Source of the DNA: Candidatus Aenigmatarchaeota archaeon
Lineage (GTDB): Archaea > Aenigmatarchaeota > Aenigmatarchaeia > CG10238-14 > SpSt-28
Assembly: GCA_032249395.1 (NCBI GenBank)
Contig: JAVVFY010000004.1
Span: 1-51,978 of the forward strand
Length of the DNA: 51,978 bases
Direction of reading: 5' to 3'
This document shows positions 1 through 37,019 of this stretch, in pieces; the first letter of the stretch is position 1; every line of letters starts with the position of its first letter. The notes beneath the pieces were generated by a model. The model did not search any database. It worked only from the letters and a program-made list of their open reading frames with translations, and was not told the origin of the DNA. Made by a program: the position numbers and the translations under genes.

Positions 1-1968
1 CAACTCTTTAGCGTTTTCTACTTTCTTAACAAAGTCCTCAAGAAACTTAAATCTCTCTTTTTCATCATCCGGAATTAGTTCTTTAAGAGGAACTTTTATT
101 TTAACAAACTTAACAAGATTATTGTTTCTTTCATTCTCATCACCACATTTCTCCAAAATTGTTATTACTGTGTTTATGTCAGCATCAGGAAAGACTCTTT
201 CTTTTGTTTCAATTATTGCAACTATTTTACAATGCTTCAAGAAGAATTCTTGCAAGTGTTTTCCATAATCAACATCCAACCACGCATTTGATGTAATATA
301 ACCAAATCTTCCTCCATTTTTCAAAAATCTCAAACCATGAATGAAGAAGTATGCATAAATTCCTGCCCTCTTGCTCAACTTTATGTCTTCTCCCCAATCT
401 TCTTTTAATGTTTGTTGTAACTTCTCCTTATAGTTTTCAACATAAGCATCCAATTCTTCTTGTCTTGTATAAGGAGGGTTGCCAACAACAGCGTCTAACT
501 CATCGGGAACTTCAACTTTTATATTTTCTTTTCCTATACCTTCAGCTAAAATTTTCATAAATTCTTTCCATTCCTTGAATTTGCTCACTTTTATATCAAA
601 GAAATCTTTGCAAATTACAATAGGATTTTCTATTGTACTCAAATCTCTGGCAGCAAGATTAATCATCGTTAAATGTGCAGCAAATTTTGATATATCTACT
701 CCAATTAACTGCTTTACTATTTCTTTATGAGATCTGTAAGGAGAAAGATACTTTATTCTAGCATAAGCTCTAACTAAAAATGTTCCAGCACCACAACCAA
801 AATCTGCAATTTTTGCATTAGGACTTTTTATGCAAAATGTGTTAATTATATCAACTACGTCAGGATTTGTGAAATATTGTCCAAGCTTATGTCTTTCTTC
901 ATCAGGAATTAATCTATCAAATATATGCCCAACATCTTTGTATCCGAGTTTAGAAAAATCATATTTAGAGAAACCATTGATAAAGCTCCTCAAGCTTGGA
1001 ACTATTGATTTTGGTATTGGCACTCTTTCTAAGAAATCAAATCCAAAAATTGCTTCAAAATCTTTTGTCGTTTTCTCAGCTTCATCAAAATACTTTTGCA
1101 ATTCCTTCTTGAGAAGCTCACCATCTTCAATACCTTCTTCTAATTTTATTGGCTCTAAGGATGGGAAATTTCTTCTAAGAGTATTGTAAAACATTACTTT
1201 GTTTAAAAGTAAGTATAAGAACTGTCTGGCAACTTTCTCAAATGGTTCGATATCATCAATAATTGGTGCATTCCAACCTTGAGATACAAACCATTCAATA
1301 AGTCTTTCTCTAAATTCTTTATCTTCCTTGGATTTTTTCCTAACTTCGAGAGCAATAGGATAATAAGAAGCATCTACAATATTTCTAAGAGAATAGATGA
1401 AAAATTCATCAATTGGTAGTGTTGGTAGTTCTTTCTTTCCTTCCAAAAACTCAACAAGCTCTTTCAAGAATTTTCTTAGACCTTCTTTAATTTTCTTTTG
1501 AATTTCGGGGTCATCCATTTCTCTTAGGTCTTTAATTTTGACAAACTCGTATCTGCTCTTTCTTTTCTCTTCCCATGATGTAGCCTCTTCATACGTTTTC
1601 CATAGAACCAATTCATTAACATTCCATGTAGCAAAAAATGGGCTTGTAGGAGGAAGATTGGCTTTAGCTTGAGCATCGTTAATTAATTCCCAGTCATAAG
1701 GAGTCCAACCTTGCGTAGGATCTTTCAATTCAATATGGCAAACTGGTTTTATTCTGACGCTTTTCCATATGACAATATCGGGAAATCTTCTTGACTGACC
1801 ATCTGGCAATTTTTTCTCAACGTCCACATCAGCTCTTTCAAAAGGCAAGCCTTCTTCCTTTATAATCTCGTTTATCATCTCTACAAGTCTTTGTCTAATA
1901 GTGTTTTCTACATATCCAATTGGTTCAGAAGTATAGAACCTCTCAGAAGGTGTAGAATATTTGCTCAT
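1..1968 (-). CDS. Type IIG-like restriction-modification enzyme: N-terminal PD-(D/E)xK nuclease module fused to a gamma-class N6-adenine DNA methyltransferase. The C-terminal part (target recognition) lies beyond the window start.
   Basis: Absent from the ORF track because there is no stop inside the window. Minus-strand ATG at 1968-1966, open for 656 codons to position 1. My translation shows RRFPDIVIW...CHIELKD (PD...ExK, about 1720-1790), the SAM motif ADFGCGAGTF (about 781-810) and the catalytic VVGNPPY (revcomp of 469-489). This nuclease-then-methylase order is typical of MmeI/Eco57I-like enzymes. Confidence 0.75.
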   Translation of the reverse strand, partial: MSKYSTPSERFYTSEPIGYVENTIRQRLVEMINEIIKEEGLPFERADVDVEKKLPDGQSRRFPDIVIWKSVRIKPVCHIELKDPTQGWTPYDWELINDAQAKANLPPTSPFFATWNVNELVLWKTYEEATSWEEKRKSRYEFVKIKDLREMDDPEIQKKIKEGLRKFLKELVEFLEGKKELPTLPIDEFFIYSLRNIVDASYYPIALEVRKKSKEDKEFRERLIEWFVSQGWNAPIIDDIEPFEKVARQFLYLLLNKVMFYNTLRRNFPSLEPIKLEEGIEDGELLKKELQKYFDEAEKTTKDFEAIFGFDFLERVPIPKSIVPSLRSFINGFSKYDFSKLGYKDVGHIFDRLIPDEERHKLGQYFTNPDVVDIINTFCIKSPNAKIADFGCGAGTFLVRAYARIKYLSPYRSHKEIVKQLIGVDISKFAAHLTMINLAARDLSTIENPIVICKDFFDIKVSKFKEWKEFMKILAEGIGKENIKVEVPDELDAVVGNPPYTRQEELDAYVENYKEKLQQTLKEDWGEDIKLSKRAGIYAYFFIHGLRFLKNGGRFGYITSNAWLDVDYGKHLQEFFLKHCKIVAIIETKERVFPDADINTVITILEKCGDENERNNNLVKFVKIKVPLKELIPDDEKERFKFLEDFVKKVENAKEL

Positions 1969-1992
1969 TAATTAATGATTGTTTTGAAAGGT

Positions 1993-2457
1993 TTAAATTT
2001 TAGAAGAGTTTAGATAACTTTGGACTTGTTGATTTCTTTTTATCTCCAATACTTCCTTAATCTTAAATCCCATATACTTTCCTTTTTCTTCTACTGAAAT
2101 GTTGAGTAAATTTAAGCAAAACTTCTGAAGAGTCCTCCCATCGTTCATTCCAAAATTATCTATCACAAAGTCTACTTTTTTCTTTAAATCTTCATCTAGC
2201 TTAACCTCTTCTTTAAGATCTTCTTCTTTCAGCCTATCAAACTCTTTTGAGACTTCGAAAGAGAATGGTCCTAAGTAGTAAATGTAATATTCATTTCCAA
2301 GCAAACTATCTTCTCTTATCGTTTTTGAATCAGCATCATAATGTTCTATTAAAAACATTAGTTTCATGACTTGCAATTTCCCGAAGAAACTCTTTCTTTT
2401 CATCAGTTTTTTTATAAGGTAGATTAAAACTTCCCTATTCTTTTTGTTATTTTTCAT
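1993..2457 (-). CDS. Panacea/SocA (DUF4065)-like domain protein, putative antitoxin-type module
   Basis: 154 aa. The pattern GKLQVMKLMFLIEH...YYIYYLGPFSFEV resembles the KLQKLLYF...W.yGP core of DUF4065/GepA. It lies 24 nt upstream of the R-M gene on the same strand. Confidence 0.45.
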   Translation of the reverse strand: MKNNKKNREVLIYLIKKLMKRKSFFGKLQVMKLMFLIEHYDADSKTIREDSLLGNEYYIYYLGPFSFEVSKEFDRLKEEDLKEEVKLDEDLKKKVDFVIDNFGMNDGRTLQKFCLNLLNISVEEKGKYMGFKIKEVLEIKRNQQVQSYLNSSKI

Positions 2458-2487
2458 GAGATCACCATCCTACCGCACCAACCAATA

Positions 2488-3156
2488 TTAAATTCTTTTT
2501 AAACAATTTATTACTTCAGTAAGGCGTTCTATGAGCTTAAACAAGCTGTAGTTCTTTGTGCATTTCTTTGTGATATACTGACATAAAACCCTAATGTTGT
2601 CGTTCTGTATCTTTAATTTCAAATATTCTTCAACAATATAGTAGATTTCTATCAATTGTGAAATTCTTTCATAATTTTCGTTTTCAAATTGAGGGAAAAT
2701 AAGCAAAACTATAATTTTTTCATTTTTGTTTGTGTATTTCTCGACTATATCTTCTACGTATTCTAAAAAATTGCTTCCACTTATTATTCTTTTAATCTCA
2801 ATTGTAATTTCACTAGTCTTTAAATCCATATTCTCTAAAAGATAAGCATTCAATCTTTTCTTTTCTAATTCTTTTTTTATGATTAATCTACACAATCTAT
2901 CAGCATAGACATTCTTTTTCATGAACTCTTCGAAATTTTCAATTTTCTTCTTTTTAAAAAGAGGATTAAACACAAAACGGATTTTTTCTATTACATCCTT
3001 TTCTATTTCCCTAAATTCTTTCATTCTTCTACCAACTTGCCGTTCATCTATAGAGGTAATGTCAAATAAACTGCAATAGAATAACTCATGTTTATTTTCA
3101 TCATTCTTAATCTTATCGTAATATTTCTCAAATTCTTCAAATGACAGCAATTCCAT
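2488..3156 (-). CDS. Hypothetical protein, 222 aa, probably all-helical, no recognisable motif
   Basis: Long ORF with protein-like charged and hydrophobic periodicity. Its start is 1 nt after the RadC stop and it ends 30 nt before the Panacea-like gene. Confidence 0.55.
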   Translation of the reverse strand: MELLSFEEFEKYYDKIKNDENKHELFYCSLFDITSIDERQVGRRMKEFREIEKDVIEKIRFVFNPLFKKKKIENFEEFMKKNVYADRLCRLIIKKELEKKRLNAYLLENMDLKTSEITIEIKRIISGSNFLEYVEDIVEKYTNKNEKIIVLLIFPQFENENYERISQLIEIYYIVEEYLKLKIQNDNIRVLCQYITKKCTKNYSLFKLIERLTEVINCLKRI

Positions 3157-3157
3157 T

Positions 3158-3835
3158 CTAAAAACTCTCCTTCACACTTTTAAAAGAATTACTTCCTATA
3201 ATCAAATGATCTAAGACATTAACTCCTAAAAGCTCCCCTAATCTCATAATTCTTTTCGTCATTTGAATATCAGCATCGCTAGGTTCAGCATCTCCAGAAG
3301 GATGGTTGTGAACTAAAATTATTGAAGCAGCATTATAATCAAAAGCTAGCTTGAAGATTTCCCTACCTGAGAAAACACTTTCATTCAAGCTTCCTTTAAA
3401 CACATCTTCAACTTTAATCAACCTATTTCTCGAATCTAACAACAAAACTTTCAAAACTTCTTGTTCCAAATCTTGCATCTCGCTTCCAACAATTTTAAAA
3501 ACATCTTCAGGCTTTTCAATTATTGGACTTACATCTTCAACATAAGAATTAACTCTTCTCGCTAACTCAAAAATTGCTTGAATTTGGGCAGCTCTAACTT
3601 TTCCAATTCCAAAGAATTTTTCTAATTCGCCAATGCTAGCTTTTGCCAATCTCTTCAAATCATACTTTCTCAAAACTTTTTGAGTCAATTCTAAAGCTGT
3701 AATTTTCCTTCCTTTCCAATTGACATCTTTACCAAAAATTATTGCTAAGAGTTCAGCGTTAGATAAACTGCTAACTCCTTTTTGAAGCAATCTTGTTAAT
3801 GGTCTGTCTTGAAGTTTTTTTGAATAACTTTTCAT
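3158..3835 (-). CDS. radC: RadC-like JAB/MPN+ domain protein
   Basis: N-terminal HhH-like LSNAELLAIIFG and the C-terminal JAB motif ILVHNHPSGDAEPSDADIQMTKRI. Confidence 0.85.
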   Translation of the reverse strand: MKSYSKKLQDRPLTRLLQKGVSSLSNAELLAIIFGKDVNWKGRKITALELTQKVLRKYDLKRLAKASIGELEKFFGIGKVRAAQIQAIFELARRVNSYVEDVSPIIEKPEDVFKIVGSEMQDLEQEVLKVLLLDSRNRLIKVEDVFKGSLNESVFSGREIFKLAFDYNAASIILVHNHPSGDAEPSDADIQMTKRIMRLGELLGVNVLDHLIIGSNSFKSVKESF

Positions 3836-3957
3836 TTAAAGTTTTTAAGTTTGGGAAAGAGGTTAATTGCTATAAGATGGTTATAAGATAGTTTATTTTT
3901 AACTTAAATTTTTTAGCAGAGTATTAGACTTAATAACTACAAACAAAATAATATAAA

Positions 3958-6270
3958 ATGGAAATAGATCTAGAACTAAAAGAAACAATAGAGAGAATTA
4001 GAGCCGATTGGAGAGATGTAATATCTAAAAAAGTTCCTAGAGGCACGTTAATAGGAACTTTGAGAAATTTGTTTAAAGAATTTAATGTAGAAAATTTAAA
4101 CGATGTATTCAGGTTCGTAAAAGAGTTTATACAGAATGCTGATGATGCTGAAAGTAGTGAGATTAAATTTAAAATTGAAGAAGATTTTGTAACAGTTTTT
4201 AATAATGGCAAACCATTTACAAAAGACGGTATTGATAGTATATGTGGAAAATATTTCTCAAATAAAACTCCAGCTCTCCATATAGGTTTTTTAGGTATAG
4301 GTTTCAAGTCAGTTTTTTTAATCTCAGAAAGCGTGAGTATAGGATCTGTTAATAGAGAATCCGGAAAATTTATATTTTTCTCTTTTGATAAAGAGAAACT
4401 AAAGCAAGAAGCAATAAATGAAGTGTGGGAAGATGCTATAGATGAAAAGTTTCTCAAGGCCTTTTTCCAAGTATATCCGTTATTAATAAATGAGGAATCT
4501 TTTGAGATTCCACCAGAGTATAATGTCGGTTTTAGAATAAAACTAAAAAATAGAGAAATGATAAAAGAATTAACAAATTGGATGTTGAGCGAAAATAGCA
4601 TTAATCCTCGAATATTATTATTTCTTCCACACCTTCAAAGGATTATTATAGAAACTTCAGAAAGAAAAATTACGTATGAGAAAAAACTAATTGAAAACGG
4701 AGAAAACTACGAAATTTTTTCCATTAGTGGTGGAAAAGAGAATTTGTATTATCTTATCTTCAGAAAAGAATACGAAGTACCCCAAGATATTTTGAAAAAA
4801 GAAAATGAACTACTAGAAGAATACAAACGAGATAAAATTGCTAAGAGAGAGATTTATGTGGCCTTTAAACTAAGAAAAGATCAAAATGTAACACTAGAAA
4901 AAGAGAACCAGGCTACACTCCATATTCTTCCATATAGTTTTGTACCATTGAAGCAAACACCTTTGAGTAATTTACACTTCATACCTGCTGGAGATTTTCT
5001 TGCTGATATATCGAAAAGTAGAATCATTTTAGAAGGAGAATGGAACAGGTCTATTCTTTTGAATATATCAAAATTTATAAAAGAAGAGATAGTGCCATTC
5101 TTTAAGAGAGACGAAAGATTTAAATATAACTTCCTATCAGTTTTGTGGGCGGAAAAAACCTACCAAAACATCATTGATGAGAATCTTATTCTAAAAATTC
5201 AAGACTTTATAAATTCTGGTGATGTGTTTCTAACTATAGATGGTAAGTGGGTTTCGAAAGATAAAATAGTAAGAGTGCCTCCAGAATTATTTGAAATTTT
5301 TAAGATTAATAAAGATCCGATAAACAAAATTAAAGAACTGATAAAGGATAAGGAAATATTAGATCCAAGATTTGAGTTGCCAGAGAGTTTAAATGAAGAA
5401 CTTGAATCACGACTTTCTGAAAATATATTTTATTACCTTAAAGAATATTTTAGATCATTAGTTGAAAAATTCGAAACATTACCTGAAGAGGAAAAGAAAG
5501 ATACCATTTTATTGATTTCCGAATTGTATGTTAATTATCTCAAAAAAATTCGAGATTCAAATAAGAAGATATTGGTAGATGAATTAATAGAAGAATTAAG
5601 AGGATTGAAATTTAAATCAAAAAGTGGTAAAATTATTTCAATAGGGGAATTGTTTCTACCTTCAGAAATTTCTGAATATAAACTGGAAGAGATTGTAAAT
5701 AAGTTAAGAGAACAACTTGGAGAATTCTTTACCGAATATGTAGAAACTGGAGAAGAAAAAAGAATAAGCTACGAATTTTTAGATATAGCACCGTTTAAGG
5801 ATATTATAAATAATGAAAATGTTAAGACATTTTTAAGAAGAGTGAGCAGAGAATCTAAAATAGATAACCAATTAGGAGCTTTGAGAGAAAACTTAAGCTA
5901 TAACATTGCTTTATTATTTATAAAAAAGAAAAAGGCAGGTAGTAAAAATGTCAGATTCGAATTAATTCTGAATCCAACGGATTTTTTGACTTTAATGGGT
6001 AATGACCAAATTTATGTTGAAGTAAAAAGCTCTATTAATAAAGAATTTGTTCTTGAAAGAGCTCAAATAGATTTCATTCTAAATCCATCTAATAAGGTAG
6101 AATTAATTTTTGTGGATTATTCTTTAAATGAAGATTTGAAATATGATATTGAGTGGATCAAAGTATACGAAATTAATATAAATAATTTGAGTTATTATCA
6201 ATGGAAAGTGAAAATGGAAGATGAAATAAAAGCTGGCGAATGTAATCTAAGAGAATTATTGAATGAATAG
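3958..6270 (+). CDS. Sacsin/Hsp90-like GHKL ATPase fused to a C-terminal DUF3883-like PD-(D/E)xK (restriction endonuclease-like) domain
   Basis: 770 aa. N-box EFIQNADDAES, then FNNGKPFTKDGIDSI and IGFLGIGFKSVFLISE (sacsin-type G-boxes). The C-terminal 100 aa carry TDFLTL...IYVEVKSS...LERAQIDF, matching the D...EVK...nE pattern of DUF3883. Confidence 0.65.
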   Translation: MEIDLELKETIERIRADWRDVISKKVPRGTLIGTLRNLFKEFNVENLNDVFRFVKEFIQNADDAESSEIKFKIEEDFVTVFNNGKPFTKDGIDSICGKYFSNKTPALHIGFLGIGFKSVFLISESVSIGSVNRESGKFIFFSFDKEKLKQEAINEVWEDAIDEKFLKAFFQVYPLLINEESFEIPPEYNVGFRIKLKNREMIKELTNWMLSENSINPRILLFLPHLQRIIIETSERKITYEKKLIENGENYEIFSISGGKENLYYLIFRKEYEVPQDILKKENELLEEYKRDKIAKREIYVAFKLRKDQNVTLEKENQATLHILPYSFVPLKQTPLSNLHFIPAGDFLADISKSRIILEGEWNRSILLNISKFIKEEIVPFFKRDERFKYNFLSVLWAEKTYQNIIDENLILKIQDFINSGDVFLTIDGKWVSKDKIVRVPPELFEIFKINKDPINKIKELIKDKEILDPRFELPESLNEELESRLSENIFYYLKEYFRSLVEKFETLPEEEKKDTILLISELYVNYLKKIRDSNKKILVDELIEELRGLKFKSKSGKIISIGELFLPSEISEYKLEEIVNKLREQLGEFFTEYVETGEEKRISYEFLDIAPFKDIINNENVKTFLRRVSRESKIDNQLGALRENLSYNIALLFIKKKKAGSKNVRFELILNPTDFLTLMGNDQIYVEVKSSINKEFVLERAQIDFILNPSNKVELIFVDYSLNEDLKYDIEWIKVYEININNLSYYQWKVKMEDEIKAGECNLRELLNE

Positions 6271-6287: not shown

Positions 6288-7145
6288 TCATCTTTCCTTT
6301 CCAACTTTTTCAATCATTTCTTTTATTGTGTTTCTAATGTTCTCATCTTTTATTTGTCTTACTAATTCCTTCCAGCTTTCAATTATTTTCTCTTCACCCA
6401 AGCTATCTAACATAAACCAAAACAATGGGATAAGTCTTTTTCTTAAAGCAGATTTTTCTTTGAATTCTTTTATCATTTCTGGATACAATGAGCCCGCAAG
6501 AACCCTTTTCTTATCTTCATCCCATCTTATATAGTAAGAATCTCCTGTAAATGGTGAAACACTCGTATCAACTTCACTGACACAATCTATTAAAAATGAT
6601 GAAAATAATCCTCTATCACCAATGAACTTTATAGGATCATAATCAAATAGTTTTAACAATAATAAACCGCCTGTTAATGTTCCGGAACCTATTAGTGCAT
6701 ATCCCGGATTATCGTGAAGAGGTTCACACAAACCTCTGTCATCAAACTTATACAACTTTGGATTTCCCTCTTGAGTTACACTTGCGAGTAGCATTGTAGT
6801 ATCTACTTCAATGCCAGCGTTTTTCAACTCAGAATATCTATTTATCAAATAATTTTCAATTTCATGAACTATCTTCTCCATCTCATCTTCTTTGGGGCTT
6901 CTCGGTTTTTGTAGAGATATAAACCAGTTTTCAAAAATTTTTTGAATATTTTCCATGTTTTGTTTTATAATTGTTGCATCTCCAGAACCTGCCAATAATG
7001 CTAAATCATATTCTTCTCCATTTATGTAAAACCCTATTGGAAAAATTTTCTTTTCTTCTCTCATTATTCCTATCATGCTTGAAACTCTGGTATCAGCTGT
7101 AACCAAAATTCCATTACCCCATCTCAATGCAATGATGAAAGTCAT
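6288..7145 (-). CDS. Divergent proteasome-beta/HslV-like Ntn hydrolase with insertions and a C-terminal helical extension
   Basis: The ORF track gives 6288-7223. I prefer the internal ATG at 7145, which yields M-TFIIALRWGNGILVTADTR...KKIFPI...LLAGSGDAT...ALIGSGT. Thr1, Asp17 and Lys32/33 line up with archaeal PsmB (TTTVG...ATE/DRR...GKKLFQI). An A/T-rich TATA-like stretch lies 20-35 nt upstream of 7145. Confidence 0.6.
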   Translation of the reverse strand: MTFIIALRWGNGILVTADTRVSSMIGIMREEKKIFPIGFYINGEEYDLALLAGSGDATIIKQNMENIQKIFENWFISLQKPRSPKEDEMEKIVHEIENYLINRYSELKNAGIEVDTTMLLASVTQEGNPKLYKFDDRGLCEPLHDNPGYALIGSGTLTGGLLLLKLFDYDPIKFIGDRGLFSSFLIDCVSEVDTSVSPFTGDSYYIRWDEDKKRVLAGSLYPEMIKEFKEKSALRKRLIPLFWFMLDSLGEEKIIESWKELVRQIKDENIRNTIKEMIEKVGKER

Positions 7146-7337
7146 ATATAGTAATTGCATTATTATAAATATAATTCTTTTAAGACTACTAGCAAGAATA
7201 AGTATACAGAAATAAGGCTTCAATTACCCTTTAATCTTTATAATAATATTCATTCTCCTTTAAGAACAAAGTCAATGCTACAATAGAAATAAGATTTAGA
7301 GCAACTTCAATCAAAATAATCAAAGTCTGTTTTTATG

Positions 7338-7640
7338 TTATTTTTTATTTTCTTTTGCTTTCTTCTTTTCCAATTCATCCAAAACTTCTATCTTCACTTT
7401 CTCCAAAGCAAGAAAAGCTTCAATTCTTCCAATCGTCTTACCTATATTGTAAACCTTCATCTTCTCTTCATCATAATTTCTAATAAGCCTTTGCTCACAT
7501 TCTTTAATTTGACTAACTATTTTCATCAATCTCTCTTTAGTCATTGCCCTAGAAAAGAAATCCTTAATGAACAAGCCAGTTATCTTTTTTATTTTCTCCA
7601 ATTCTTCATACAATCTGTCATCACTCACTTTTCTCACCAA
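7338..7640 (-). CDS. Hypothetical coiled-coil protein (100 aa)
   Basis: Charged, heptad-like sequence. It is more protein-like than the overlapping plus-strand ORF 7335-7643, which is F/L/S-rich. Same strand as the flanking genes. Confidence 0.4.
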   Translation of the reverse strand: MVRKVSDDRLYEELEKIKKITGLFIKDFFSRAMTKERLMKIVSQIKECEQRLIRNYDEEKMKVYNIGKTIGRIEAFLALEKVKIEVLDELEKKKAKENKK

Positions 7641-7656
7641 TAAATCCCATTAAAAC

Positions 7657-8409
7657 TTAACTCTTAAATCTCTTTCTGTCTTTGTTTTGAATTTTTCTTA
7701 TAATCAAAAACATTGTCTCTAAAAATGAAGCTAAAGTGAAGAGAGAAACTAAAGATGGAGAAATTTGGATTAAATCGTCAAACTCTATTTCAATAGGACC
7801 AACTATCTCTTCTTTCTTTATTTTCTTATGCCACTTAAGATAATGCTCTCTTTGCATTTTCCTATAAGATTTCTCATATGTCATCGATTTTCTAAGATAA
7901 TACAAAGCTTTCATATATTCTTCCCAGCAGCACCAATCTTTCTTGTATAGTAATAAGAATTCATCGTCTTCATCTGTCTCATTAAGTACAGAAAGCTCTT
8001 GTGTTTTCACCTTTTCCTTGATAAGAGTTCTTATATCAATAAGGAAATCTTGAGTAGTGTAGATTTTATTCTTATTAGCAAAAGAACCTATTCCTCCCAT
8101 TATTCCCTCATACTTAGAAGTAAAACCCCAGTACCATTCATTATCTCTTTCCACATCTTCCCAAGGAAGTTTATGACCAGCATAAGAAAGAACTATTGAA
8201 AATTCTGGGTCAAAATGGAAATTCCATCTATCAAAATAAGGACTGCCTTTTGGAATTTTTACGTAGATTCTAGTCGGTTAACCAAATTTTATGAGAGTGT
8301 AGATTACATAATCTTCCCATTTTGACTGGAATAAAACGTACTTAAATTTCATTTCTTCTAGCTTAGCGAATATTGCTTTAAGTGCTTTTTCTAATGTTGA
8401 AGCCTTCAT
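7657..8409 (-). pseudogene. Hypothetical protein gene interrupted by one in-frame TAA
   Basis: ATG at 8409-8407 is in the same frame as ORF 7657-8154. The reading frame is continuous (MKASTLEKALKAIFAKLEEMKFKYVLFQSKWEDYVIYTLIKFG*PTRIYVKIPKG...WEDVERDNEWYW) except for TAA at 8280-8278. Confidence 0.5.
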
Positions 8410-8731: not shown

Positions 8732-9359
8732 ATGGAGGTTAGAGAAATTATGGATGAGAGTACAAAAGAAGTAAAAGTTGGCCAAAAAGTGCCTGACTTT
8801 AAAATCACATACTACGATCCAAATAAAAAAGGTTTCGGACAAATTAATCTTTATGACATTCTTAAGCAAGGCAAATTGGTAATTTTTTTCTTCTATCCAG
8901 CGGACTTCACTTTTGTTTGTCCCACCGAACTTGCGGACATTAATGCTAAATACGATGAGCTAACAAAAGAAAACGTTGAGGTAATAACCTGCTCGACTGA
9001 CACACAATACGTTCATCTTGCTTGGTGTAGAGATGAACCTTTATTAAAAGATTTCAAAATGGAAGATGGCAGCAGACCCAACAGGAACGATCTCAAGAAT
9101 TTTTGGTGTATACGATGAAAGCTCAGGACTCGCTTTAAGAGGAACGTTCATAATAAATCCGGATGGAATATTAGTAGGTTCTGAAATAAATCATTATTCC
9201 GTTGGTAGAAATGCTGAAGAGCTTGTAAGAAAAATAAAAGCTTTCCAATATGTGTATAAACATCCTGATGAGGCTTGCCCAGCAAAATGGGAGCCTGGTA
9301 AGAAAACGTTAAAACCTGGGCCAGAGATAGTAGGAAGAGTAGGGGAAGTTCTTAAGTAA
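8732..9359 (+). pseudogene. 2-Cys peroxiredoxin (AhpC/Prx1 type), frameshifted
   Basis: ORFs 8732-9118 and 9066-9359 together give a full Prx: FFFYPADFTFVCPTE (peroxidatic Cys) ... ADPTGTISRIFGVYDE...LRGTFIINPDG...DEACPAKWEPG. The frame changes at about 9060-9066. Confidence 0.8.
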
Positions 9360-11723: not shown

Positions 11724-12233
11724 TCACCCTATATTTAAATTTGAATAGAATCTTCTTAAATCCCTATAACTCCATATTCTTGGATAGAATTCTTTACATT
11801 TTTTCAAAACTTCATCATCTCCTGTGACAAAAATTAAATCCTTTTTCTTCGCTATTATTAGATGCTCCAGGTTAGTTACTCTTTTTCTTATAGGAATTGA
11901 TGAGACAATTCTTAGTATCTCTTTGTATAGTTCTGAGACATTAATGTTAACCTCTATTTCTGTACAATTAACATCTAGAATAAAAGACTTCCAAATTTTT
12001 TCTATTAATGTATTGTCAAGCAAGAACTCACTTTTAAGTTTTCTAACTATTTCAACTTTTGTCAAAATAGAAACATTGTAGTTTATCTTATCTTTTGATT
12101 CAATTAAAAACTCAGCAACTTTAGAAGACTTAACCTCGCCTTTTAATTCTGATACTTTCTTAAGAAAGTATCCAAAAATTATGTTTGTATCTAGGTAAAA
12201 TTTTTCATCCACTTCTTTTTTTAATATGCCCAA
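11724..12233 (-). CDS. PIN-domain protein (VapC-like ribonuclease)
   Basis: FYLDTNIIFGYF near the N-terminus, TKVEIV in the middle, and LIFVTGDDEVLKKC near the C-terminus. This is the typical spacing of the acidic residues of PIN domains. Confidence 0.55.
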   Translation of the reverse strand: MGILKKEVDEKFYLDTNIIFGYFLKKVSELKGEVKSSKVAEFLIESKDKINYNVSILTKVEIVRKLKSEFLLDNTLIEKIWKSFILDVNCTEIEVNINVSELYKEILRIVSSIPIRKRVTNLEHLIIAKKKDLIFVTGDDEVLKKCKEFYPRIWSYRDLRRFYSNLNIG

Positions 12234-12286
12234 AAAGCAAACAATTGCTATAAGATACTTATAGATTGCTTATTTTTAATAAGCGA

Positions 12287-20739: not shown

Positions 20740-20841
20740 TGCCTGGGGCGGGATTCGAACCCGCGACCTCCGCGTTTCTTATCATCAATTCAAAGCTCAT
20801 TTATTATGAGCGCGGCGTTTTAACCACTCAACTACCCAGGC
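20740..20841 (-). tRNA. tRNA with CAU anticodon (elongator Met, or Ile2 if modified) containing a 29-nt intron at the canonical 37/38 position
   Basis: Revcomp: GCCTGGG TA GTTGAGTGGTTAAAAC G CCGCG CTCATA [ATAAATGAGCTTTGAATTGATGATAAGAA] A CGCGG AGGTC GCGGG TTCGAAT CCCGC CCCAGGC A. The intron spans 20804-20776. Intron ATGAGC pairs with exon GCTCAT (BHB-type helix). G1:C72 and the anticodon stem argue against an initiator. Confidence 0.85.
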
Positions 20842-34569: not shown

Positions 34570-37019
34570 AGAATAAAATATCTTTGAGAATAACTGGAAT
34601 GCATTGCAATAGTTGTGCTGTAAGCATAGAAAAAGCTTTGAATAAGTTGCCAAGCGTTAAAGCAAACGTTAATTTCGCATTATAAAAAGCTTTTATTGAG
34701 TTCGATCCAAATAAGGTTGATCTAGAAAAAATAAAAGAAACGATTAGAGATGTTGGCTACGATGTTTTAGAAGAAGAAAAAGAAACAGAGTTTAAAAGTA
34801 TAAGCTTGAAAATAGAAGGAATTTCCTCTAAAAAGCAGATATATTTTATAGAAAGCGAATTAAAGAAAACAAAAGGAATAAAAGATATAAAAATCGATTT
34901 TGAGAGAAAGAGAGTTATTGTAACTTTCGATCAAAAATTGGTTAAAATATATCAAATAATTAAAGTCTTAGAAAATCTAGGTTTTAAAGCCAGAGAAGAA
35001 ACATCTTTGGAAAGAGAAAGAGAAATTAGAGAAGAAGAAATAAACGATTGGAAGAAAAGAGTATTGATTTCCCTAGTTTTCCTTATACCTTTATCTTACT
35101 TAACAATGGGAAGAATGATAGGTTTACCAATGCCATTTTCAGAAAACGATTCATTAATTGCTCTGCTTCAATTCTTACTTTCTATTCCAATAATAATTTC
35201 TGCTTCAAGAATTTACATTTCTGGAATAAGAAGCTTGTTGAAGTTTATCCCAAACATGGACTCTTTAATTTTTATTGGAACTTTTGTAGCTTATGTTTAT
35301 AGCTTAGCAATTTCTTTTGCCATTTGGTTTAATCTAGGAAATTACGGGGCTCACGATTTGTATTATGAAGTAGGATCTTTCATAATCTTCTTCATTTCTT
35401 TAGGAAAATATTTAGAAAGTGTAGCAAAAGGAAAAGCTTCTTTTGCTTTAGAAAAGTTAATAGGGTTACAACCTAAAAAAGCAACTGTAATTAAAAGTGG
35501 TAAAGAAGTTGAAGTCCCTGTTGAAAATGTAGAAGTTGGAAATATAGTTGTTGTTAAGCGTGGAGAAAAAATTCCGGTTGATGGAGTAATAATAGAAGGA
35601 ACTTCCTCAATAGATGAAAAAATGATAACAGGAGAGAGCATGCCAATTACAAAAAAGAATGGAGATAAAGTTATAGGTGGGGCTATAAACAAAACTGGAT
35701 TAATAAAAATTAAAGCTACAGCAGTTGGCAAAGAAACTGTTTTAGCACAAATTATTAAATCGTTGAAGAGGCAATGCTTTCAAAAGCACCAATTCAAAAG
35801 TTGGCTGATAAAGTTTCCCAGTATTTTGTTCCAAGCGTTATTGTAATATCAATTATAACGTTTGTATTTTGGTATTTTATAGCAAAAATGCCTTTAACTT
35901 TTGCTCTAACCACATTAATAGCGGTTCTAATAATTGCTTGTCCTTGTGCTCTTGGATTGGCGACACCAACAGCAATAATGGTTGGTAGCGGATTAGCTGC
36001 AAAAAAATGGAATTCTAATAAAAAGTTCAGAAGCTCTTGAGAAGATTCACAAGGTTGATACAGTCATTTTTGATAAAACCGGAACTTTAACAAAAGAGGA
36101 GCCAAGCGTTGTTGATGTTATTCCTGCTAAATCTTATGATAAAAAAGAAGTCATCAGAACCGCTGCAATAGCTGAAGTTGGAAGCAGGCACCCAATTGGA
36201 GAAGCAATAGTTAACTATGCTAAAAAATTGAAAATAAAAATTCCAAAAGCATCGAAATATGAAACAGTAGCTGGAAAAGGGGGGGGGTAAAAGCAAAATA
36301 TCTTGATGATTGGATCTTTGTTGGTAGTAGAAGATTCATGAAAGAGAATGGTATATATAGGAAATTTTGAGAAGAAGATGGAAGAATTGGAAGAAGATGG
36401 AAAAACTTGTGTTATAGTTGCATGGAAGAAAAAAGCAATAGGAATTATAGCAGTAGCTGACACTTTAAAAAATTTTCCAAGGAGACAGTAGAAATTTTGC
36501 ATAAAATGAAAATAAAAGTTGGAATTATTACTGGTGATAACGAAAAAGTTGCCAAGGCTATAGCAAGGTAGCTAAACATAGATTATGTGCTTGCGGAAGT
36601 CTTGCCTGCTGATAAAGCCAATGAGATTAAAAAACTTCAGAAAGAAGGAAGGATAGTTGCAGCTGTTGGTGATGGAATAAATGATGCTCCAATGCTAGCT
36701 CAAGCTGATGTAGGAATTGCAATTGGTTTTGGAACTGATATACCGATGGAAACCGGAGACATAATTTTGATTAAAGATGATTTAAGACGATGTAGTTAAA
36801 GCTATAGATATAAGTAGATATACTATCAAAAAAATAAAACAAAATCTTTTTTGGGCGTTCTTTTATAATGTTGCAGCAATACCAATAGCTGCAGGCATAT
36901 TATACCCATTTTTTGGAATATTGTTGAACCCCATGATAGCAGCAGCTGCGATGGCTTTTAGTTCGGTAAGTGTGGTTACAAATTCATTGCTCATGAGAAG
37001 ATATAAACCTAAAATATAG
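34566..37019 (+). pseudogene. copA: Copper-translocating P1B-type ATPase (CopA), heavily degraded: 2 in-frame stops and about 5 frameshifts
   Basis: Motifs spread over several frames: [57 protein letters not shown] and [21 protein letters not shown]. Lesions: TAA 34683-34685; frameshift about 35757-35761; A7 run 36001-36007; G9 run 36279-36287; about 36467-36476; TAG 36569-36571; extra C near 36788. Confidence 0.9.
36279..36287. repeat. G9 homopolymer inside the copA remnant
   Basis: Read directly (aaaa ggggggggg taaa). It coincides with one of the copA frameshifts and is unusual in this AT-rich sequence. Confidence 0.9.

Follow-up and report, generated by a model that had tools for sequence, protein, structure and literature searches.

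Two nested modules, one headed by RadC and one formed by a Panacea-type gene pair, probably share a recombination-prone restriction-modification locus of an archaeal contig

Introduction

Four genes that run in the same direction lie within the first 3.9 kb of contig JAVVFY010000004.1 from a Candidatus Aenigmatarchaeota archaeon, a stretch of 51,978 nt that is referred to below as the window. They encode a RadC protein, a 222-aa orphan protein (X), a 154-aa Panacea-like protein and a type IIG restriction-modification (R-M) enzyme. The question raised by this locus is whether the four genes form one system or are separate pieces that share a site. An initial annotation of the DNA had read them as a cassette coupling an R-M enzyme to a PanA-type toxin-antitoxin (TA) or abortive-infection pair. 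Comparison with relative contigs (coded L001 and so on) retained the pair and the type IIG enzyme but not the idea of one co-inherited four-gene system. We consider it reasonably probable that the locus consists of two nested modules at a recombination-prone R-M site, an outer one headed by RadC and an inserted X-Panacea TA-like cassette. To our knowledge, RadC is among the most widespread prokaryotic proteins without an agreed function, and its role has been disputed for decades.

Results and discussion

Identity of the four genes

All four genes were found on the minus strand, with gaps of 1, 30 and 24 nt along the order RadC, X, Panacea and type IIG, and every motif quoted in the initial annotation was located in the sequence (Table 1). 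Profile searches assigned the RadC, Panacea-like (at the family level) and type IIG proteins, and gave no match for X in Pfam, NCBIfam or PADLOC. The RadC/JAB assignment of the first gene is secured by matches to PF04002 (1.2e-42), UPF0758_N (PF20582; 1.5e-15, 57.5 bits versus a cutoff of 27.1) and the NCBIfam models PRK00024 (224.2 bits versus 180) and TIGR00608 (201 versus 133.85). The JAB/MPN+ metal motif HxHx7Sx2D is intact and the N-terminal HhH-type UPF0758_N domain is present. The version typical of mobile elements is a short, JAB-only RadC. The initial annotation had noted RadC-like JAB genes as typical cargo of mobile and anti-restriction loci; the protein of the window is not of this short type but the full-length HhH and JAB form, and it scores above the NCBI equivalog cutoff.

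The last gene indeed encodes a type IIG enzyme with the nuclease-then-methylase layout that had been proposed. Its product matches Eco57I (PF07669, 2.7e-24) and N6_Mtase (PF02384, 1.6e-18) in Pfam and REase_MTase_IIG in PADLOC (4.3e-48 over aa 50-651), and a single polypeptide carries the nuclease motif PD...ELK followed by a gamma-class N6-adenine methyltransferase in which motif I precedes motif IV. The match to MmeI_Mtase is sub-threshold (20.8 versus 27). An identical gene in public contigs gives a full length of 1136 aa (L003:11189-14599). The C-terminal region falls outside the window; the orthologue in L042 carries M_Eco57I_C there, and no model of a target recognition domain matched in L003. 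Eco57I/MmeI-like type IIG enzymes have in common the N-terminal PD-ExK nuclease, the gamma-class N6-adenine methyltransferase and a C-terminal region. The window type differs from them in that it is preceded by RadC in several archaeal lineages, an arrangement of which we found no description. Two other identities of the enzyme were rejected, a MADS (MAD2) methylase (55.8 versus an NCBIfam cutoff of 720) and a BREX methylase (BREX-2 PglX, 35.9 versus 400; BREX-1, 30 versus 500), and no further MADS or BREX genes were found near the type IIG gene.

X and the Panacea-like protein form an obligate pair

The true unit within the four genes is the X-Panacea pair, which is obligate. A co-directional Panacea-family gene stands directly downstream of X in all 28 loci that have downstream sequence (26 of them non-redundant), at gaps from -50 to +181 nt, with 27 loci at 77 nt or less and one at 181 nt. 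The hosts include Euryarchaeota, Woesearchaeota and the lineage of the window. In distant archaea (a Euryarchaeota metagenome-assembled genome, a Woesearchaeota one and others), the neighbours of the pair are genes for MetRS, archaeal SAM synthetase and homoserine dehydrogenase, and RadC and R-M genes are absent; in some of them it lies beside an IS transposase, and genes on the opposite strand often bracket it. X is disrupted in four loci, once by a premature stop and three times by a frameshift, and the Panacea partner is intact in all four. The adjacency in 28 of 28 loci bears out the earlier suggestion that the 222-aa and 154-aa proteins are a PanA-type TA-like pair, and on these sequence patterns the pair behaves like a mobile type II TA pair, in which X would be toxic and its partner would neutralise it.

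The family assignment of the 154-aa protein draws mainly on its homologues, 32 of 40 of which match PF13274 at E<=1e-3 (best 8e-08); many also carry a precomputed PF13274 match. Structure prediction followed by Foldseek was helpful for this protein and returned nothing significant for X. The model of the 154-aa protein (pLDDT 94) found as its only meaningful matches the DarT-DarG chains 7yk3_D and 7yk3_B, with probabilities of 0.98 and 0.94, E of 0.12-0.18 and TM of 0.48-0.54, and the NCBIfam DarG model matches the protein weakly. This likeness to DarTG is confined to the toxin-binding type of helical domain, and the window pair lacks both a macrodomain and a DarT-like partner.

Experiments have established the Panacea domain as an antitoxin domain, and PanAT pairs have been defined by an adjacent conserved partner gene within 100 nt in at least two species (Kurata et al. 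2022, PMC8832971). X-Panacea has a neighbourhood of this kind. Like PanAT, it combines a small Panacea-domain protein with a conserved partner within 100 nt and is mobile, as PanAT pairs are with their swappable partners; the PanAT data set contains the T|A as well as the A|T order, and third 'accessory' genes in a minority of its genomes may be compared with RadC at X-Panacea (PMC8832971). That survey was built on RefSeq genomes and lists no DPANN lineages (PMC8832971). X matches no known domain family. The window pair differs from PanAT in being embedded between RadC and an R-M gene, where it acts as an allelic cassette.

RadC adjoins R-M genes in the sampled archaeal lineages

The linkage of RadC with R-M genes is also seen in loci that lack the pair. 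Six archaeal RadC homologues at graded identity, selected solely by the length of the available sequence, were compared together with one bacterial homologue. RadC of L038 (88% identical) is followed by a 353-aa nuclease subunit and then an Eco57I-type methylase; that of L039 (76%), after a 4-nt gap, by a 979-aa type IIG enzyme; that of L041 (55%), after 7 nt, by a 966-aa type IIG enzyme; and that of L042 (55%) overlaps the gene of a 1137-aa type IIG enzyme. In L043, an Altiarchaeota contig (45%), RadC overlaps an EVE-domain gene that precedes a type I system, and in L040 (60%) it is convergent with a type I operon. R-M genes therefore adjoin RadC in six of six archaeal homologues, five of them co-directional with gaps of -11 to +7 nt to the next gene, and in eight of eight archaeal RadC lineages once the window clade and L018 are added. 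X-Panacea is found in none of L038-L043. Because only one of the ~52 genes in the window encodes an N6-methyltransferase, chance adjacency of RadC and R-M genes is very unlikely.

The two partners also appear to have diverged together. The type IIG enzyme of L042, which abuts RadC, is a full-length orthologue of that of the window (51% over 1140 aa, with RadC at 55%), and a second type IIG family is common to L039 and L041 (54%, with RadC at 57%); such matched identities indicate that RadC and the type IIG enzyme co-diverged as neighbours. Since RadC and R-M genes occur together without X-Panacea, and X-Panacea occurs without either, the deeper linkage is that between RadC and R-M, and the pair most plausibly entered between RadC and the R-M gene as an insertion. 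No link of RadC with R-M was found described in the literature that we searched, which was a limited collection.

These comparisons bear on a simpler explanation, in which RadC is an ordinary conserved chromosomal gene that happens to border an integration or recombination hot spot of a defence island, where R-M systems, X-Panacea and other defence genes collect and no functional relation exists among the genes. We regard this as unlikely. RadC and R-M genes remain adjacent at RadC identities as low as 45-55% and in Altiarchaeota (L043) while the other surroundings differ, RadC is co-directional with the next gene and overlaps it or lies within 7 nt of it in five of six lineages, and it co-diverges with two type IIG families; the bacterial RadC of similar identity (L044, 46%) has no R-M neighbour and sits among housekeeping genes such as those for RecO, RF-1 and S16, unlike the archaeal ones. 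The convergent operon in L040 is nevertheless a fact in favour of the hot spot, as are the exchange data described in the next section.

RadC proteins have been proposed to have a role in nucleic-acid processing, occur fused to the anti-restriction protein ArdC, and have an activity, peptidase or nuclease, that is unsettled in the literature (PMC3239186, PMC5512222). The RadC of the window is like the bacterial UPF0758 family in its HhH and JAB architecture, metal motif and equivalog score; the family is described as mainly bacterial, whereas this member is archaeal and heads R-M loci.

In the CP4-type cryptic prophages of E. coli, RadC-like JAB genes (yeeS, ykfG, yfjY) are placed directly upstream of CbtA/CbeA-type TA pairs. 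As in the window, a RadC-type JAB gene there precedes a TA pair in a conflict island with anti-restriction genes; the prophage loci differ in having short JAB-only proteins, unrelated TA families and no R-M enzyme behind them. Other TA modules were noticed in the relatives: in L039 (2864-3647), a HepT/MNT (nucleotidyltransferase) pair ~2.5 kb upstream of RadC, and in L010, a gene for a ParE toxin as the immediate upstream neighbour of RadC. TA modules of different kinds gather around the RadC locus.

The pair and the R-M cargo are exchanged by recombination

The X-Panacea pair of the close relatives falls into three alleles, A (the window, L002, L009 and L010), B (L001, L015 and L019) and C (L016-L018). 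Identities from allele to allele are 42-49% for X and 50-56% for the Panacea protein; between carriers of A and B, RadC is 96-98% and HsdM 94% identical. At the DNA level, L001 and L002 are 90-99% identical in radC, 56-70% in precisely the interval between the radC stop and the hsdM start, and mostly 90-96% in hsdM. Relatives are homologous to the window from 3893-3898 down to 2001, in effect as far as the stop codon of the Panacea gene. That X and its antitoxin change alleles jointly would follow from a cognate specificity of the pair. In L019 (1078-1281), the allele-B pair is followed by a remnant of 67 aa with 86% identity to the Panacea protein of allele A; this remnant looks like a recombination scar of cassette replacement.

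The R-M cargo changes as well. In the clade of the window, the RadC-X-Panacea trio precedes three different cargoes, a type IIG enzyme (the window and L010), a type I system (L001, L002 and L009) or a PLD-SNF2 nuclease-helicase (L015), and it stays more than 90% identical while the R-M partner swaps to unrelated types. L038 shares the MFS transporter (97%) and a 281-aa gene (95%) beyond the R-M segment of the window and thus has the genomic background of the window. Up to the HNHPSGD motif, the RadC of L038 agrees with that of the window at 97-100% identity; it then continues with an L039-type tail (86% to L039), which places the breakpoint just after the JAB motif, at window position ~3267. 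The adjacent 353-aa gene shows 94% identity with residues 1-342 of the L039 type IIG enzyme, and the methylase part only 53%. These mosaics indicate that blocks are exchanged by recombination inside conserved motifs, with RadC as one border.

Much of this is what a hot spot without functional relations would also produce. In near-identical strains, the trio has variable flanks on both sides, with a TmtA-like, AAA_14/DUF4143 or ParE gene upstream and a type IIG, type I or PLD-SNF2 cargo downstream; the variable segment is bounded by RadC and the 281-aa gene, and the breakpoints lie within conserved motifs. Allelic R-M loci between conserved flanks are, moreover, well known in bacteria: at the immigration control region of E. 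coli, R-M families replace each other at one site by way of conserved flanks, and prrC in the EcoprrI locus is a toxin gene embedded in a type I operon. The locus studied here likewise exchanges cargo through conserved flanks and would hold a latent toxin gene within an R-M operon. It differs from the allelic R-M loci in that the left flank, RadC, is linked to R-M over deep divergence, and from prrC-type loci in that two genes are embedded, a Panacea-type pair that turns over as alleles of its own. We favour the two nested modules.

Several smaller features of the exchanged segments were observed. Between the Panacea stop and hsdM, the allele-C contigs carry the palindrome TTGATAAGT-N12-ACTTATCAA (L016:1109-1183, L017:1202-1275, L018:8074-8147), and after it a TATA-like TTTAAAT, ~30 nt ahead of the hsdM ATG; the palindrome may be a terminator or operator that parts two units. 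The type I operons downstream of RadC have an extra gene between hsdM and hsdS. In L001 (6293-7915) and L009 (3174-4760), it encodes unannotated proteins of 540 and 528 aa, respectively, and in L002 (3624-4379) and L043 (9198-10520) a DUF3800 protein and a SLFN_AlbA_2/HATPase_c_4 protein, which suggests that the position between hsdM and hsdS is a recurrent slot for accessory or abortive-infection genes. In L043, the EVE-domain protein is placed between RadC and hsdM.

Transcription signals and the unity of the four genes

At the RadC-X junction, the gap is 1 nt or 0 nt or is replaced by a 4-nt overlap, and a Shine-Dalgarno (SD)-like AGGAG lies within the 3' end of RadC; an SD-like GGTGAT stands at -10 to -5 before the Panacea gene. 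These features fit a polycistronic RadC-X-Panacea message. The type IIG gene has no SD sequence and is preceded by TTTAAA centred ~26 nt upstream of the ATG. TATA-like hexamers in the window peak at -26 to -23 from start codons (13, versus 0-5 in other bins), six of them upstream of short-gap genes, and the R-M genes after every junction in the relatives have a similar TATA-like box and no SD sequence. It is thus probable from these signals that the type IIG gene has its own promoter, a candidate leaderless one, besides read-through, which is also possible because no oligo-T terminator was found between the four genes. The earlier view that the genes are probably one transcript agrees with the short gaps and the missing oligo-T run; with a candidate promoter box at -26, however, short gaps do not imply a single transcript here.

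A region of ~62 nt upstream of RadC is nearly identical in L001, L010 and L015, and the DNA further upstream is unrelated; this region is a probable promoter or operator of the RadC-led unit. It contains one of two exact copies of the 14-mer ATCTTATAGCAATT, each located just upstream of a minus-strand gene, RadC in one case and a 169-aa ORF in the other, and at RadC a further ATCTTATA stands 11 nt before the copy. A role of the 14-mer as a general regulatory motif was rejected, because its five occurrences at two or fewer mismatches do not exceed chance (2.1 expected). The R-M segment of L038 is also flanked by paralogues of the 169-aa protein.

An integrated system of RadC, X, Panacea and the type IIG enzyme, expressed as one transcript and coupling TA to restriction, would account for the co-directional genes, their short gaps and the lack of an oligo-T terminator, and it would suit the defence-rich neighbourhood with a TmtA-like gene next door. 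The order RadC-X-Panacea-R-M does recur: both the window clade and L018, whose RadC proteins are 56-59% identical, have it. We nevertheless judge such a system highly unlikely. Most X-Panacea loci are without RadC or R-M, RadC-R-M loci exist without X-Panacea, and the R-M type is interchangeable, its partner being swapped for unrelated types next to a trio that stays nearly constant; the four genes are accordingly not one co-inherited cassette, as the initial annotation had it. The TATA-like boxes of the R-M genes, without SD sequences, and the allele-C palindrome between Panacea and hsdM also argue for separate units.

X is a candidate PD-(D/E)xK nuclease

The family of X is small, with seven clusters at 90% identity and 72 representatives among 1.84e9 proteins, and tblastn against plasmid and phage collections gave no match. 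Its members have an N-terminal LFYxSLFD motif (aa 25-32) and, further on, D111 and E120-x-K122. In an alignment of 46 sequences, D111 and E120 are conserved to at least 90% and K122 is invariant. An AF2 model of X (pTM 0.77) contains helices at 86-99 and 130-141 and strands at 104-106, 112-114, 117-123 and 147-155; together they form an alpha-beta-beta-beta-alpha-beta unit, with D111 where beta2 begins and ExK within beta3. This combination of D...ExK with an alpha-beta-beta-beta-alpha-beta core makes X a candidate PD-(D/E)xK nuclease toxin. In a comparison by hhalign, the D and ExK of X align with the catalytic D and EVK of a type IIG nuclease domain, at a probability of 1.8%.

The tests of similarity to nucleases are concordant yet non-significant, so that membership in the PD-(D/E)xK class is statistically unconfirmed. 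They, and several features of the other proteins and of the sampling, weigh against the reading that we prefer. The model of X was built from six sequences only, a shallow alignment. Foldseek of this model against the PDB gave a best E of 0.05, with an archaeal XPF at rank 12 (E 0.14) and generic alpha/beta folds dominating, and against the viral library BFVD a best E of 0.013 with a few endonuclease-like entries. The profile of the X family against PDB sequences returned noise only; a Pfam scan of 46 members found NOV_C (three members), DpnII-MboI and AHJR-like matches, all at E of 0.02-0.05; and hhalign of X with the type IIG nuclease domains and Cas4-like proteins of the compared loci stayed at a probability of 1.8% or less. 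Because no sequence-profile or structural match is significant, X is filed as a PD-(D/E)xK candidate and not as a member, and 'nuclease toxin' is our leading hypothesis for X rather than a finding. The Panacea-like protein itself scores 22.3 bits against PF13274, below the gathering score of 25.7. The disruptions of X (four, versus none in its partner) are suggestive and no more, because they come from metagenome assemblies. The RadC-R-M sample is small, with eight lineages, the close relatives all derive from a few related metagenomes, and the convergent R-M operon of L040 fits a hot spot better than an operon.

A nuclease-like motif in X and the position of the pair between RadC and R-M genes might also be taken to mean that X-Panacea is a non-toxic accessory of R-M, either a DNA-end-processing nuclease with its regulator or an anti-restriction or immunity pair, the more so as other genes occupy this position elsewhere (the EVE-domain protein in L043 and the split nuclease subunit in L038). 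This we find barely credible. An accessory role is disfavoured because the majority of X-Panacea pairs occur nowhere near an R-M gene; in addition, the Panacea domain is an established antitoxin (PMC8832971), and joint allelic replacement with recurrent disruption of X fits a toxin/immunity pair.

A model of two nested modules

We propose the following model for the locus. In the outer module, RadC would be the conserved first gene of an R-M locus whose cargo, so far an Eco57I-like type IIG enzyme, a second type IIG family, type I systems and PLD-SNF2, is exchanged by homologous recombination. In the inner module, X-Panacea would be a self-contained, mobile type II TA-like pair that was inserted between RadC and the R-M gene. 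The Panacea protein would bind and neutralise X, most likely a PD-(D/E)xK-type nuclease. Loss of the locus or an infection-induced shut-off would remove the antitoxin; X would then be freed and the cell would arrest, and this release would stabilise the R-M island, back restriction with abortive infection, or both. RadC and X would be translationally coupled, and the R-M gene would probably have a promoter of its own too.

A more far-reaching proposal, which we offer as tentative and on balance doubtful, is that R-M loci of DPANN and related archaea have full-length RadC as a dedicated component, which could be a DNA-bound JAB hydrolase that controls or mends the effects of restriction, as a form of restriction alleviation, or could process DNA for the R-M enzyme, and that X represents a family of nuclease toxins neutralised by Panacea. 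RadC would then be kept at the head of the operon while R-M cargo and accessories (X-Panacea, the EVE protein and split nuclease subunits) are exchanged.

Panacea antitoxins, type IIG enzymes, RadC and allelic R-M loci are all of known kinds. Apparently new are X as a Panacea partner, the exchange of the pair as an allele between conserved flanks, and the adjacency of RadC and R-M in archaea. If the far-reaching proposal is true, the RadC family would gain its first coherent functional context, and X would add a new family to the nuclease toxins that Panacea neutralises. The linkage of RadC with R-M, in eight of eight lineages and with two co-diverging type IIG families, turns 'function unknown' into experiments on restriction control. 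X adds an undescribed partner family to the archaeal Panacea network, its conserved motif offers a definite hypothesis on catalysis, and its three alleles can be used to study cognate specificity. The locus also displays the reshuffling of defence modules in small-genome archaea at base-pair resolution, with recombination in the JAB active-site region and at the nuclease-methylase junction of the type IIG enzyme; even if it is merely a hot spot, it is a well-resolved exchange site of a defence island in DPANN archaea.

Other features of the window

The features of the window are collected in Table 1. An archaeal host is confirmed by aIF6, which the window encodes above the curated cutoff, together with archaeal SbcD-related and PRK00766 proteins, and by a 102-nt tRNA that presumably contains an intron; this tRNA was found through Rfam (64.6 bits) with no ARAGORN call, and the presumed intron fits an archaeal host. 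RadC relatives at 53-56% identity carry the label Candidatus Aenigmatarchaeota.

Table 1 Positions of genes, motifs and other elements in the window
Feature	Position	Strand	Description
Conserved region upstream of RadC	3836..3898	-	~62 nt; ATCTTATA twice, 11 nt apart
RadC	3835..3158	-	225 aa, HhH and JAB/MPN+; first gene of the unit
JAB motif HNHPSGDAEPSDAD	3269-3310	-	RadC aa 176-189, HxHx7Sx2D metal motif
X	3156..2488	-	222-aa orphan; small uncharacterised family; predicted toxin
LFYxSLFD motif	3061-3084	-	X, N-terminal
D111	2818-2829	-	X, candidate nuclease motif
E120-x-K122	2785-2802	-	X, candidate nuclease motif
Panacea-like protein (DUF4065/SocA)	2457..1993	-	154 aa; predicted antitoxin of X
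KLQVMKLMFLIEH	2341-2379	-	Motif of the Panacea-like gene
YYLGPFSFEV	2251-2280	-	Motif of the Panacea-like gene
TATA-like TTTAAA	1992..1997	-	Overlaps the Panacea stop codon; candidate leaderless promoter of type IIG
Type IIG R-M enzyme	1968..1	-	N-terminal 656 aa; open reading frame (ORF) open at the window edge, no stop
PD; ELK	1765-1785; 1720-1734	-	Type IIG nuclease motif, aa 62-83
FGCGAGTF	778-801	-	Type IIG methyltransferase motif I, aa 390-397
NPPY	469-480	-	Type IIG methyltransferase, aa 497-500
ATCTTATAGCAATT, two exact copies	3865-3878; 12243-12256	-	14-mer
169-aa ORF	11724-12233	-	Downstream of the second 14-mer copy
TmtA-like gene	3958-6270	+	770 aa; divergent from RadC
311-aa ORF	6288-7223	-	Adjoins the TmtA-like gene
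Two unannotated ORFs	7338-7640; 7657-8154		Follow the 311-aa ORF
AhpC/peroxiredoxin gene	8732-9359	+	Split into overlapping ORFs 8732-9118 and 9066-9359
tRNA	20740-20841	-	102 nt
346-aa ORF	34806-35846	+	ATPase-like

The neighbour upstream of RadC encodes a 770-aa protein whose match to PADLOC TmtA (Tiamat defence; 2.5e-41) covers no more than the first ~540 of the 1302 positions in the profile; the protein has an NCBIfam sacsin-type ATP-binding domain (73 bits versus a cutoff of 50) and about half the typical length of TmtA. Since other genes (ParE, AAA_14/DUF4143) take the TmtA-like position in relatives, it belongs to the variable cargo of the defence island. The adjoining 311-aa ORF has a sub-threshold match to the proteasome-subunit family PF00227 (21.7 versus 22.4 bits), and its product may be a proteasome/HslV-like component of the island.

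Further along, the AhpC gene is split identically in contigs L003-L008, and the L010 homologue is intact (208 aa); the split form is likely a frameshifted pseudogene or a recoding site. In the 346-aa ORF, similarity is limited to the N-terminal third of copper/heavy-metal P-type ATPases, with the CopZ-like metal-binding domain included, and this ATPase-like gene may be split or truncated.

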